From: Octopus sinensis
Taxonomy: Eukaryota
NCBI RefSeq assembly: GCF_006345805.1
Contig: NC_043001.1
Coordinates: 16,802,001-16,866,000 of the forward strand
DNA: 64,000 nucleotides
Direction: 5' to 3'
Below are positions 3,919 to 51,868 of the stretch, piece by piece (positions within the stretch are counted from its first letter, which is position 1; each line of letters starts with the position of its first letter). The notes beneath the pieces were generated by a model, which made no database searches, was not told the origin of the DNA, and saw only the letters and a list, made by a program, of their open reading frames with translations. Made by a program: the position numbers and the translations under genes.

Positions 3919-4138
3919 TGTTGTGTCTGAGGAGAGTCATTTTCTTTTTGTGCCTTATAATATAACACACTCACCGGTAAAATTTCCACTTTTTTCTTAT
4001 GTCAAAACTATTAAAAAGTTTGCAAGACGCAACGAAAATTTTAGGAAAATAAAAATAAGAAAAAAAAGTGGAAATTTTACCGGTGAGTGTGTTACATTAT
4101 AAGGCACAAAAAGAAAGCGACTCTCCCCAGATACAACA
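3919..4138. repeat. Long inverted repeat (~80-bp arms) with a degenerate hammerhead-like fold in the spacer; Penelope-like
   Basis: Arm 3919-3998 is the near reverse complement of 4057-4138. Spacer reads cta-TTAAAAAG-tttgc aagac gcaac-GAA-aatt-t-tag. Confidence 0.7.
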
Positions 4139-4459
4139 GAATATGCTTCAACACACGAACTCATATAAAGAATCTTGCAAACTAAATCCAAAAACGAAAT
4201 ATGAACGTTTTAATGTTGCTCTTCTGTGTATTGTGAAAGAACTATATGTGCAATTTTCTTAGTGTTATTCAGCGTGTTTTAGATTTAAGCAAATGATAAG
4301 GATTTGCTTAAATACCTGTAGGGCTAATTGTATACAGTGAAAAGAGATAAAGGGAGATACAGTTTTAGTCACCTGTAAAAGTTATGGTATATTACGTGAC
4401 GTGCCATATTTCAAACATAGTGCTAGTGCATGCATATACAGCTGCGTGCGCACATACAC

Positions 4460-4752
4460 GCGAGTACTGTCCAAATCTCCGACCAATCACATACAGCTAG
4501 CTGGCATTCAATTGGCGTATCAAGTTTTGGGCATTTTGATTGGGTTTTGGATAGAAAATTCACTAAAAAGTCACTTCTATTGATTTTTTAATGGCTTTAC
4601 GAGGCGACATGGGAAATGTAAAGATGTGCACGACCACCCTTGGACGGTTTTGAATAGCCATAGAAAGTGTGAGCCCTCTAACTGAAAAATTGTGGATTTG
4701 TATAAAGGACACACACACAGACAAACATTTTGCCGTTTATATATAGAGAGAT
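4460..4752 (-). mobile_element. Helitron-like non-autonomous element, 5' part
   Basis: Minus strand begins atctctctatatataaacggcaaaatgtttgtctgtgtgtg, the same 5' architecture as the element at 43211; 3' end not clearly seen. Confidence 0.45.
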
Positions 4753-6162
4753 AAGGGGTTATTTTTTTAAAAGAGCGTGGTTGTATGCAACGATAGATAA
4801 AGTGTAGTGAAGCAAAGCTGTTAGTGACAGTGAAAGCGATTTGTAGGCTGCTCAGTCTATGACTAACATTGACATTACTAAAGCATTACAATTTCACTAA
4901 CTATAAAATATGTAAAATATAATTCGCTTAATAAGAGCATGAAGAGATTAATTCCAGCTGGGAGTTTAACACAGGGAGCAGCTTCAGCTGTATAAAATAT
5001 ATTTCATATGTATACATGGAAGAGATTTCAAGCCGTTGATCTACAAAATCTTTGCTGATTGACTCACTTATTTTGAACTTAAAGATTCCCACTCTATCAT
5101 GCCCAATATCTGCCTCCAGAGAATGAAGACATTTCTTCTATATTCTTCCCTGAGCTATTACCTGTCTTAAATCTCGTTTTACATGGTTTTATAGTTAGAT
5201 TCTTATAGTTTTACTTCATTGATGTTTCCAATAGAAGTCTATTACGCTTTCTTGAAAACATTTACTGTTTAGTGGATAACTAGTGTTAATAGCGAGGCAA
5301 TCACATAGTGATAGAGAAGTTTGTGTATTCGTGTTTGTCAGCTCTTTTCTATTTATTTTTGCGAAATTATCAGAAAAACAGTAGCTCACTATTATATTTT
5401 ATTAAAATCTTTCTGTAATTTGTGGTTTGTGTCGATGTTTTGCTTACTAGATGTAACAAAAATCGAGGTTACTTGAACTGACGTTTAAGGTAAATGGTGG
5501 GTTCTAACAAAAAGTCTTCCTTCTGTAGATTTTGTTAGTGGCTGTATTATCCGGTTTTTAGTATGTCACGTATTTTTTTCTATAAACCCATGTAATGTAT
5601 CACTGTGATATTTCGTAACGTCTTTAAAGGAGTATTAATTAAAGGATATGTCCCAGTTACATTTCTTAATGTTGCTAGACTATCTTTATAAAGTAGCTGG
5701 TGGATGATTGGAGCATTTCTGGATACCACTGCAACGGGTTGTATTTACTTGAATTTAATTTTAGAGATATTACTAAGAAATAACTTCACTTGTATTAGTG
5801 CTGATAGTAATTCGAACATACAGACTTACACTGCGTACCTATATACGAGTAACAACCGTATGTATATAGGTGCATTTGTATTATGTTCTGTAATATTATG
5901 CATCAAAGTAGAATATAAGATCATATGAATATACGATACATATGTGCGTGTGTTTTTTAGTTTGCATGTGTATGTGAATATGTGTATGTGTTTAAACATA
6001 TGCATATGTGGATATGTTATATATATATATATATATTATATATATATATATATATATATATATATATTAATCAATTTAGGGTAGCAAAAAAGTCAATAGA
6101 AATTATTTTGCCACCAGCGGTCTAGTGAGAAAGAGGAAATAGTCAAAGACTATGAATAAATT

Positions 6163-6238
6163 CAACAACAATTGAGGAACGGCTACAATAGTCTAGTGGG
6201 TCGAACGGCCTATTGTAGCCGTTCCTCAATTGTTGTTG
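6163..6238. repeat. Perfect 29-bp-arm hairpin between (TA)n tracts
   Basis: caacaacaattgaggaacggctacaatag, an 18-nt spacer, then ctattgtagccgttcctcaattgttgttg. Confidence 0.85.
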
Positions 6239-48900: not shown

Positions 48901-50306
48901 CCGTCTCTACCTTCTCCAACAAGTGGTAGTTTTAAAGAAGGTGACGCGGGCTTGGCAGGTAATGAAATCTTTATTTGTCACTGAATACAGAGAATTACCA
49001 AGAAGAAACCCTCCTTTACTAGTACTTGCAAATATATAAGCTATGATATAGAGAAATGAAGGAGAAAATTAGATAAAGACTACTACAAGAGACTCAGTCT
49101 AAATATTAGATAACAGATCTGACCGACAGATAAAAGATATGTACCACATTAGCACACCGTGTGATTAATTTCTATTTAAATGTAATAAATTGAATGTCAA
49201 GTGGATTGAAGAGCTTTGGGTAGAAAAACTTGAAAACTACTTATTGCATTTTAAATAAACCATCATGAAAATGGTTCAGATAAACTATAGTCTAGTTAAT
49301 ATCACTATCTTTGATTTAGGGAACATAAAAAAGCTAACTAGAAATATTTATACGGTGATACATAATATCAAGTAATTGATTTGAAAACATTTTTTTATAT
49401 TTCTCCAGAAAGTACGAAAGATAACTCTGGTCATGTTTGTTCTGTTACTTTGACCTCATTAGCGAAGAAGTTATGAGAGAGCAAGTTCGTCGTACACATA
49501 GGATTGAGAACTATGGCTTGGTGACCCACTTGGACTTACAAAAATACTTGGAAACAAGCAAAAGTAGTTTAGAACAATAAGGTTACATGTAAAGTAAAAA
49601 TGCAAAAGAATTTTTTTTCTGTGACATGGTGAGACGATACGGGATAATGCTCATGAATGTTTGGAGGGTTTGTTCCATATTGGATTATGTAAAAAGGTAT
49701 CCAAGGACCAACTGGGTGACGGTTTGATGCGTTAAAAAATAGAAACTACTTAGAAGTTAATTAGCCGAAGGCAAAAGGTTTTGAGAAAGCAAAAAGAACT
49801 GGGAATGTTAAAAGAGGCTTGACTGAGTAGGTAACTATATTCATTGGATGGATATGCAAACAGCTTCCATCTAAAAGCTGAAAGTAGATGGTACAAGCAC
49901 GCTTCGAAGCTGGCGTGTGACATTAACCTTCCTGCGATACTTTAGAACTTATCTGAATAGACTGACGCAAAAGATCAGAGTAAACAGCTTAGTCATCATA
50001 ATCAAAGAAAACCTAGGCACTTTAAAATTCCTTGGTTTCTTGCATCAAATTTTCAATCGGAAGGTAATGAAAATGGCATCAAAATACAGGGGCAATGGGC
50101 ACGGACAAGAAGAGTTAAATCACTTATCAAATAATTGGTGCACTGCTAATAGGAAAGAGTTGTTGTATACTGTCAACATAACGTGACAGTCCCGTAAAGG
50201 GAATTAAACCACCGCTATTTAGCCCTAGGAAGCATCGACGCTCCTGTCAGCTTTGACACATTTCCTGTGTCTTTATATTTGCGAAGGGGAGGCAAGCACC
50301 CCCAGC

Positions 50307-50383
50307 AGCTAGGATTAGCACCCGAAGACATACATGTTTCTGGGTCTTGCCCGTCATCAGTCCAGGTTAGTAAGTCCTGCTAG
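50307..50383 (-). ncRNA. Type I hammerhead ribozyme motif
   Basis: Minus strand acctgga-CTGATGA-cgggcaagaccca-GAAAC-atgtat-GTC-ttcgggt. Stem I 7 bp plus distal agga/tcct; stem III acat/atgt; GUC cleavage triplet at 50329-50327. Confidence 0.8.
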
Positions 50384-51770
50384 TTAGAAATTCAATATTT
50401 CTAATAAGAAAGAATATTACGAAAATTTGCTTTTGGAAATGCTCAATGTGACTGGGCTGATGTATTTTAAACAAGAACGAGGAAGGGTTTCTGTATAGCT
50501 TAAATTGCATGATGCTGCTACTGGTTAGCTTCAATCATTCTCGGATCGAATTGGAAGTGGAGAGGATATGAAATTCGCTGGTTGAGAGAACAGAAGTGTT
50601 GCATGAACAGAAGAAACAAGAAGAAACAATCTCTGTTGTTTCTTGGTCCCAGACCAGCCCCGATCAAACCGTAACCAACCATATTATTGCATATCTATAA
50701 CTGTCTGATATGACCTTCACTTAGGGTGTAATTCGTGCAATATTTGGTTACTATTTCTTGCAATCGACATTGTGGAGGGTAGTTATTGGAATGACATGTA
50801 AGGTAGCTTTTGAGGTTAAGGGCCTTAACTAATGTAGTGTAGAAATTATTAATAGATAAATGCATTGTAGCAAAAATCAGAAATCCTTAGAGAAGCCTGA
50901 TTTTATATTTATCAGGATTCCTATCAAATGGTGATTCATGATTTAATTTTGCCAGTTTATAAATGAGTAAGAGTACCAATGATTATGTTTACTGGGTGGG
51001 GGGGAGAATAGACTAAACTGAAAGTGATTATATTGAGAAGACCTGCTAATCCTTAGAATACATTGTTGGATTCCGGGAAAAAAATTTCAGTTGTTTAGTA
51101 GTGGTTGAACAGAGCACGAACTATAAAGTGTAATACAGCACTTAAAGAAATGTTTAGAAAATGGCGATGTAACCCGGTGTGAGAAATGTTAAAACGCCCC
51201 ATCGATAATCTGAAATCGCTGCAAGAATGCTTGTTTAAGCTTGAAGTGTCAATTGATGTTATAGTGCAAAATAGCAATGATAAGTAAGTGTGTTGTGATG
51301 TCAAGTGTGTGCACTAGAAGTACTCACAGATAGGAGGAAATCACTTGACCCGAAGCAGAAAGAAGTTGATATATTCTTTGGCTGCGATGACGGCGAAACA
51401 TTTATAGCAATTTCAGGTCAATTTGAAGAGATACGGATAAGAAAATAGAGTTATTCGATAAGAATCGCGTGAAAACCGCAAAGTTTTCCAAATGTAGGGT
51501 ATACGACGAATGCAGTGTACTTCAGTTATCTATCTATCTATCTATCTATCTATCTATCTATCTATCTATCTATCTATCTATCTATCTATCTATATATATA
51601 TATATATATATATATAATATATATATATATATATATTATATATATATATATATATCAGTTGGCATTTTTATTGCTGGCGAAGGGCTGCGGCTGCGCAGTA
51701 GATTTTGAAAAAGTTAGGATGTATAAACAAGGAGCACGTAGTTTGATCGCCTCGTGTTTTATGTTTAACC

Positions 51771-51868
51771 CTAGGTGTTCCTGCTGAAGACGATTTCACC
51801 TGGCGAGTGTAGGTGTTATTCATTCATTGCTAAACTAAAATCAGAAACCAATTGGTCCAGGAAACTAG
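51771..51868 (+). ncRNA. Type I hammerhead ribozyme motif within a ~225-bp element (51656-51882) flanked by (TA)n
   Basis: ttcctg-CTGAAGA-cgattt...aaatca-GAAAC-caattg-GTC-caggaa; palindromic stem III accaattggt; long stem II insertion. Confidence 0.8.

Follow-up and report, generated by a model that had tools for sequence, protein, structure and literature searches.

Background

Metazoan Penelope-like elements (PLEs) carry minimal type I hammerhead ribozymes in their pseudo-long terminal repeats (pseudo-LTRs), mostly as single truncated copies, and the 8-nt core CUGANGAH of these ribozymes, which work weakly and as dimers, is the consensus published by Cervera and de la Pena 2014 (PMC4209133). 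Here, we analyze a 64,000-nucleotide stretch of the Octopus sinensis genome (NC_043001.1, positions 16,802,001 to 16,866,000, forward strand; hereafter the window), which is 37% GC and rich in microsatellites and repeats, within a genome of 2.72 Gb. Its hammerhead-like sites are very probably the ends of several independent PLE families, together with likely non-autonomous derivatives, and in each of them lies a motif whose predicted fold is a type I hammerhead.

Departures from the canonical core have been described before; statements on published work, here and below, refer to the parts of the cited papers that entered our comparison, among which was also PMC6765202. U3-A8, A6C, and U10.1-U11.1 are reported in PMC3088659, and G3-C8 appears in PMC3884650 as an engineered pair only. 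In Craig et al. 2021 (PMC8557442), which lists octopus Naiad and Hydra families, File S2 contains both C...A and U...U at the base of stem II, the former in PLE-X1_cBra and the latter commonly in Hydra hammerheads. For one tested PLE, the protein cuts both strands of AT-rich DNA and starts reverse transcription at two internal sites, and the hammerhead cleaved only with protein, with C3G/G8C giving partial rescue (PMC11167929). Retrozymes have been defined and tied to PLEs in PMC7229834 and in the preprint of Li et al. 2026 (10.64898/2026.07.22.740005).

Hammerhead motifs in the window

A first-pass annotation of the window had named six sites with a common hammerhead layout, labeled here A (4008), B (6471), C (15428 and 26828), D (50307, minus strand), and E (51771); its motif coordinates and layouts proved correct, and all six sites belong to genome-wide repeat families. 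Families F (40007-40092) and G (654-699, minus strand) are labels for sites that we added. Cores lie at 15432 and 26832 (+) for C, 50360 (-) for D, and 51784 (+) for E. The features are as follows.

1..52, plus strand: further family D copy, 3′ tail, cut by the window edge.
654..699, minus strand: family G, an old family with the canonical CUGAAGA core and G10.1-C11.1; Rfam RF00163 at 31.1 bits; CTGAAGAG is the commonest form.
3916..4205, plus strand: family A, with an inverted 5′-truncated arm, a forward PLE-type 3′ end, and a one-sided tail; self-inverted over 3916-4141, 3′ end fixed about 210 nt from the anchor in 30 loci; outer limits approximate.
4008..4044, plus strand: family A minimal hammerhead, U3-A8, derived from UUGAAAA+G by decay, with G5A and a change in stem II.
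6319..6662, strand not assigned: family B, a palindrome of about 284 bp (6319-6602) in (TA)n with a one-sided tail of about 58 bp (6603-6662).
6401..6450, minus strand: family B hammerhead, mirror copy.
6471..6520, plus strand: family B hammerhead, GUGAACA+G (G3-C8), N17=U; core in 28/30 loci.
15399..15552, plus strand: family C, 5′-truncated 3′ pseudo-LTR of an autonomous Neptune-like PLE; hammerhead 15429-15461, CUGUAGA+A (A6U).
19916..20244, strand not assigned: family D remnant without ribozyme, with inverted arm, forward arm, and tail, between (TA)n and (CATA)n.
26790..26954, plus strand: family C, second copy; hammerhead 26828-26863; limits approximate.
39867..40100, plus strand: family F, putative Hydra-like PLE, 3′ end; hammerhead 40007-40092, with U...U at the base of stem II.
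50156..50385, minus strand: family D, partial copy of a circularly permuted unit of about 350 bp without an open reading frame (ORF); hammerhead 50307-50383 with the core CUGAUGA and C...A at the base of stem II, cleavage being predicted between 50327 and 50326.
51657..51881, plus strand: family E, partial copy of a circularly permuted ORF-less unit of about 490 bp in (TA)n; hammerhead 51778-51863, CUGAAGA, C...A, long stem II/loop.

With a relaxed hammerhead descriptor that includes 3-8 pairing, 10 matches were obtained for the window and 0.93 ± 1.1 for its local dinucleotide shuffles (30 shuffles), and at scores of 14 or more the counts were 4 and 0.03. As a set, the motifs stand above background in shuffled DNA; the two family C sites scored only 8 and 10. 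Site A was recovered by the loosest descriptor only, with a score of 8, a level at which shuffles give 8.9 matches per window. By itself this site is not above chance and is rescued by its family, being accepted because the family keeps G5 (22/30 copies). A strict canonical descriptor had no match in the window, missing also family G, whose copy here has a stem II of 2 bp. Rfam gave 157 matches, and among the 150 listed the sole hammerhead is family G, under the 34-bit gathering score, and the sites named by the first-pass annotation gave miRNA-like hairpin noise only.

The core boxes, three stems, 3-8 pair, and NUH of type I hammerheads are present, with U6 in C and C...A in D and E as variants, and positions 3 and 8 are complementary in every family (U-A, G-C, C-G), as had been claimed. 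The description of the cores as systematically non-canonical does not hold, since the canonical CUGAAGA/G-C family at 654-699 (-) and the U.U family at 40007-40092 had been missed. Proximity to (TA)n was borne out in part, with (TA)5 lying within 60 nt of the window copies of B, both C, E, and F, and not of A, D, or G; likewise, of the named sites said to include several inverted duplications, only A and B have inverted copies in the window.

The coding element of family C

The firmest link to a PLE was obtained for family C. The C-terminus of a GIY-YIG endonuclease lies upstream of the C motif in one locus (L014), and 15,787 candidates emerged when the genome was searched with this endonuclease protein. 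Of 30 loci picked by protein alone, 29 have a C-type motif on the same strand, 378-945 bp further downstream than the endonuclease. U6 is kept in 41 of 42 motifs listed, with a few loci overlapping, mostly as CUGUUGAA. All ten long loci contain stop-free frames of 716-1009 aa with reverse transcriptase (RT), a C-x4-C-x2-C linker, and GIY-YIG, and in seven of them a C-type ribozyme motif stands on both sides of the ORF, the two being 4273-4508 bp apart. The protein is encoded by a single ORF with a C-terminal GIY-YIG (RVT_1, E 1e-7; GIY-YIG, E 0.006, below the Pfam cut-off). The copy at 15399..15552 is 92-95% identical to the ends of the endonuclease-bearing loci L206 and L207 and 76% identical to the full-length L236. 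An autonomous, intact RT and GIY-YIG PLE has family C (CUGUAGAA) as its 3′ pseudo-LTR, and the short copies of the family are 5′-truncated ends of this coding element; family C is therefore not part of a non-coding system, as all of these elements had been thought to be. The label Neptune-like is suggested by the linker motif, which is common to Nematis, and not by a tree.

Core variants across the genome

First-look searches of the genome gave lower bounds of at least 2580 candidates for family A, 86 for B, 3651 for C, 1190 for D, 740 for E, 1961 for F, and 58 for G, and the best 25-30 loci were examined per family. The core GTGAACAG is present in 28/30 loci of family B, CTGTAGAA in 28/30 of family C, CTGAAGAT...T in 24/25 of family F, and CTGAAGAG in 10/21 of family G, a further 4 of the 25 G loci being without a usable match. 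C...A at the base of stem II, observed correctly by the first-pass annotation, recurs in 26/30 D copies and 26/29 E copies (one E locus at a contig end was dropped). In family A, the commonest form is TTGAAAAG (17 copies), and the form in the window, UUAAAAAG, is found in 3/30. The core variants are thus family traits, fixed within their families, and decay accounts only for UUAAAAAG, the 4008 core, which derives from UUGAAAA+G. Stem II regions of E and F are about 55-60 nt long.

In family D, compensatory change was observed around the unusual stem II base. Among 17 related sequences, namely the window copy and 16 loci from several subfamilies hand-picked as showing a D-type ribozyme from 30 loci of an ORF1-only retrotransposon described below, the core boxes are invariant, and both partners have changed in 12 of 17 pairs, among them all six of stem I. 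Shuffled controls gave a mean of 5.6 such pairs, a count that is not a probability, and slid controls gave 1-5. This pattern points to selection on the fold with C...A retained.

Insertion anatomy

The copies resemble PLE insertions in having a fixed 3′ end, 5′ truncation, an inverted copy, and a one-sided tail. The 3′ ends are constant across families and the 5′ ends are ragged in C, D, E, and F; the points at which A and B end are not ragged and lie just upstream of the ribozyme. Inverted copies with a one-sided tail occur in A, B, and D. Family B is a young palindrome (97-100% identity) with a shared central loop, its inverted partner being present in 30/30 loci although the query was one arm, and the tail is on one arm only, on either arm in similar numbers (13 and 12 of 25 loci resolved by hand count). 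(TA)5 lies near the 3′ end in 21/30 loci of B, 25/30 of C, 13/30 of D, 19/29 of E, and 22/25 of F, against a background of 0.12-0.18.

Retrozyme-like units in families D and E

Loci of families D and E show a periodicity of 350 bp (18/30) and 490 bp (12/29), respectively, in which the sequence past the tail runs into sequence otherwise found upstream of the ribozyme. This head-to-tail register at a constant period leaves no room for an ORF, and tblastn of the C protein against the 3-kb D and E loci gave no PLE protein match. Both units also have PLE-type tails and inversions. The sequence organization of D and E is that of circularly permuted, ORF-less units of about 350 and 490 bp, for which the earlier term retrozyme-like is apt. 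Contigs of runs X1, X2, X5, and X6 cover D, one X2 contig in head-to-tail arrangement; we did not accept these as evidence of expression, since the runs are not recorded as RNA and genomic partial tandems would explain them equally. A tandem duplication of about 3.99 kb, about 98% identical and with three D copies, was observed at G000:C18:36795500-36808500 (L151-L152), and the 3984-bp spacing of D on C18 was accordingly rejected as a tandem PLE, being a 4-kb local duplication without a PLE ORF.

Families F, A, B, and G

When loci were picked by the DNA upstream of F, the F motif followed in 22 of 25. By eye and by motif, L329 contains a frameshifted CxC..CP / GIY-YIG remnant upstream of F that resembles the published Hydra alignment, with parts of it in L332, L336, L341, and L342; the stretch examined stops short of the RT. 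This motif evidence supports a Hydra-like PLE, its endonuclease decayed, as the element whose 3′ end is F. An earlier assignment of the upstream region as Naiad-like was dropped in favor of this fit to Hydra, as was an RT-like stretch that sits in a duplicated 3′ region. In a separate locus (L246:7241-7882, minus strand), a Hydra-like RT fragment is fused in frame to an unrelated LINE (long interspersed nuclear element) RT fragment.

Derivation from diversified Penelope families, which the first-pass annotation had proposed, is thus direct for C and supported by motif for F. The proposed link to an autonomous RT/GIY-YIG element was made for C. In the 3-kb loci of A, B, and G, no linked RT/GIY-YIG ORF turned up; these loci are short, and the A query was biased to inverted copies. 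At L034:1880-2600, an inverted family A end is joined directly to an internal RT fragment of a C element, itself beside a family B palindrome; as a single case, this was not accepted as making the C element the parent of A.

LINE ends upstream of hammerheads

The 3′ end of a LINE lies just upstream of the ribozyme in 4 of 30 D loci, and in one more a LINE 5′ end lies at that site; a junction pattern was matched in 9 places, and in none for the control. The window's own D copy has no such LINE adjoining. We then searched with the LINE 3′ end alone, taken from a D-inserted copy, examining for the ORF1-only form the best 30 of 190 candidates, and each set includes its query. In copies of this form, which is about 1.65 kb long and shares its 3′ end with an ORF2-bearing form, D-like sequence follows in 23/30 and a descriptor-positive hammerhead lies downstream in 18/30 (background 9/3000), the LINE 3′ ends sitting 18-29 nt upstream of the hammerheads. 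For the ORF2-bearing relative, hammerheads lie downstream in 6/30 copies, five of them of other families, against the same background of 9/3000. Adjacency to D itself was found in 1/30 ORF2-type copies, the query, and most copies are off target, so a preference of this form for D proper is not shown. Among six long LINE loci chosen by hand, five for a known junction and one as an off-target control, five have D on both sides together with 15-20 bp duplications.

Separate copies of the LINE contribute the domains Exo_endo_phos, zf-CCHC, and zf-RVT, and the features expected of a target-specific LINE that were looked for are present, namely an apurinic/apyrimidinic (APE) endonuclease, an ORF1 knuckle, target site duplications (TSDs), and a preferred target. 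A weak search for homologues of ORF2 gave no match at E<=1e-30, and another search gave unnamed endonuclease clusters only. The possibility that D is the LINE's own 3′ end was rejected, given off-target LINE copies with TSDs and D on both sides.

Several observations accompany these loci. Within L251-L325 (for example L292, L261, L308, L315, and L316), LINE ends lie upstream of D and of at least two further hammerhead families. An older hammerhead family, CUGAGGA+U with a G-C base pair and upstream sequence resembling that of D, stands 3′ of the LINE in L308, L312-L315, L318, L320, L322, and L325. In L297, L303, and L305, a common non-hammerhead sequence 3′ of the ORF2-type LINE may be a second preferred target or a duplication.

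This LINE probably targets hammerhead elements repeatedly. That it makes functional use of the host ribozyme is a tentative suggestion, which we consider unlikely on balance. In its full form, the scenario is that an L1/Tx1-type LINE lineage targets hammerhead retrozyme-like elements, that the duplication would rebuild the 5′ stem of the ribozyme, and that host transcription and the ribozyme would together release LINE RNA, making the LINE a parasite of a ribozyme parasite, alongside active natural hammerheads with G3-C8, A6U, and C10.1/A11.1 that would extend the range of tolerated cores; we regard this combination as possible and no less doubtful. If true targeting occurs, sequence-specific LINEs gain ribozyme-bearing retrozymes as a further kind of target, and a neighboring element may be a source of borrowed RNA processing.

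Mechanism and alternative explanations

As an account of PLE ends with ribozymes, we propose the following. Drawing on the PLE literature, a PLE protein would nick AT-rich or (TA)n DNA, and reverse transcription would start at two internal sites near the RNA 3′ end, giving the tail. Reverse transcription would usually stop early, with short ribozyme-containing ends accumulating as a consequence. Tandem read-through transcripts would be trimmed by the hammerhead, acting either with the help of protein or as a dimer joined through its palindromic stem III; for D and E, multimeric or circular RNA would serve as the template for copying in trans; and each family would have fixed its own tolerated core variant. 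Trimming is most likely slow, because the published minimal PLE hammerheads are weak, dimer-active, and protein-dependent, and most genomic copies are most likely passive.

Several results weigh against this account. The best RNAfold structure is not a hammerhead for D or C and lacks stem II for E, and for the B palindrome taken as a whole a single hairpin results (-243.8 kcal/mol), in which both ribozymes would be buried. Cleavage by the ribozyme was not needed for in vitro insertion of the tested PLE (PMC11167929), and changes at A6 reduce activity, with A6C showing a kobs of <0.1/min (PMC3088659). Family A has no (TA)n bias (3/30 against a background of 0.07). The search for an autonomous partner was negative for A, B, D, E, and G: with the C protein as query, tblastn against their 3-kb loci gave unrelated or abutting C fragments only. 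Consecutive complete same-strand ribozymes one unit apart number 0 pairs among 83 D and 29 E motif matches in 350 loci, overlapping loci included. The loci of each family are those that best match the window copy, a few of them being duplicates, and kinship among the D sequences inflates their covariation count.

Three other explanations of the sites were weighed against PLE ends. The first-pass annotation had seen one undescribed system of non-coding elements with a shared, altered core/stem II junction. Variants that are fixed within families and not decayed, the survival of C...A through compensatory stem changes in D, and the lack of a natural G3-C8 or A6U PLE core in the published tables compared or by literature search would agree with such a system. 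We nevertheless consider it very improbable, since C is the end of a coding PLE, which already largely refutes the idea for that family, the 8-nt core with its extra nucleotide, U3-A8, and the C...A and U...U stem II mismatches are published, no single alteration is common to the families, one of which is canonical, and the remaining core variants may be covered by Lunse et al. 2017. That the motifs are chance or decayed sequence without selection on ribozyme structure is scarcely credible: the decayed 4008 copy, the Rfam results for the named sites, and the minimum free energy folds that often differ from a hammerhead would agree with it, and the excess of descriptor matches over shuffles, the cores fixed in families, the compensatory changes around an invariant core in D, and the position of the C motif in the pseudo-LTR all contradict it. 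For D and E specifically, the copies could be pseudo-LTR/5′ untranslated region junction fragments of long autonomous PLEs, not retrozymes, as the lack of two-ribozyme dimers at unit spacing, the PLE tails and inversions, and the 490 bp of E, longer than the 150-450 bp range given for retrozymes (PMC7229834), would suggest. The constant periods leave no room for an ORF, and D and E loci have no PLE protein match, which makes this reading rather improbable.

For the LINE, the adjacency could instead stem from one old insertion amplified as a composite D-LINE-D unit, a partial alternative to targeting that we think unlikely, though less so than the readings above. The query came from a D-inserted copy, only the best 30 of 190 candidates were examined, and several LINE copies share junction letters, as amplification would predict. 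Yet the flanking D copies differ in subfamily (69-93% identity to the reference) and in junction offset; L261, a 5′-truncated copy, has its own duplication inside D; the off-target copies L275 and L285 have their own TSDs; L273 and L274 show tandem re-insertion at the same site; and the ORF2-bearing relative stands upstream of other hammerhead families too.

Other features of the window

Open frames at 32201-32542 (-) and 28907-29383 (-) have astacin-like and CUB-like stretches; we take them to be probable exons of a tolloid/BMP1-type gene, in which case the elements would sit within or close to introns of that gene. An element built on a 184-bp unit is very abundant (13497-13863, 25141-25820, 37697-38062, and many more), its units often standing 2-4 in tandem, and presumably resembles known octopus short interspersed nuclear elements. 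The frames at 38090-38473 (+) and 28244-28642 (+) adjoin (AAT)n and are assumed to be fragments from the C-terminus of a non-LTR element that has a restriction-like endonuclease motif, and 6787-7140 (-) is presumably a Mariner-like transposase fragment.

Comparison with known systems

The arrangement of hammerheads at PLE ends is largely known, and our main finding enlarges a known class by further members and a few variants of the core. About 150,000 PLE hammerhead variants are reportedly contained in Lunse et al. 2017. With that paper, the likeliest place for them, outside the comparison, the literature search found no natural, family-fixed G3-C8 core and no A6U fixed in an intact PLE. Natural constructs for asking if and how PLE hammerheads cleave are now at hand, namely a young intact PLE with fixed A6U, a 97-100% identical G3-C8 family, and a covarying C...A family.

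The hammerheads of PMC4209133 have in common with A, B, and C an unpaired nucleotide between 9 and 10.1, G10.1-C11.1, and a palindromic stem III, and that paper also contains a U3-A8 variant (S. mansoni family 4, core UUGAAAAA, Fig. S3), opposite-strand pairs, and many families per genome. Its 56-row alignment, as extracted to text, has no cephalopod and contains neither the G3-C8 of B nor the U6 of C. Among the endonuclease-bearing PLEs of PMC8557442, Neptune and Nematis share with family C the C-x4-C-x2-C linker before GIY-YIG and the (TA)n bias, the Hydra clade shares with F its endonuclease remnant and U...U at the stem II base, and PLE-X1_cBra (ctgatgac...agaa) has the C...A of D and E. 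The stem II regions of F and E are much longer than in those elements, and clade placement here is by motif, not by tree.

Like D and E, metazoan non-LTR retrozymes are short, ORF-less units with a type I hammerhead and circular permutation that coexist with PLEs, and an axolotl retrozyme family has U.U at the stem II base (PMC7229834; 10.64898/2026.07.22.740005). Unlike retrozyme arrays, D and E, known here from genomic DNA, are 1.x-mers with PLE tails and inversions in the loci examined. Targeting of hammerhead or retrozyme elements by a LINE was not reported in any source found by the literature search. Tx1-clade LINEs are known to target other repeats, with Tx1L inserting into Tx1D, the further examples of Keno, Kibi, and Koshi, and crocodilian Tx1 inserting into Mariner/Harbinger (PMC4494074). 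The LINE described here shares with these target-specific elements an APE endonuclease, a CCHC ORF1, zf-RVT, long TSDs, and a fixed place in another repeat, and its ORF1-only form, which shares a 3′ end with the longer form, can be compared with half-L1 (HAL1). It differs from the known Tx1-clade cases in that its target is a hammerhead-bearing, retrozyme-like element, the L1/Tx1 label being given on grounds other than an RT tree.

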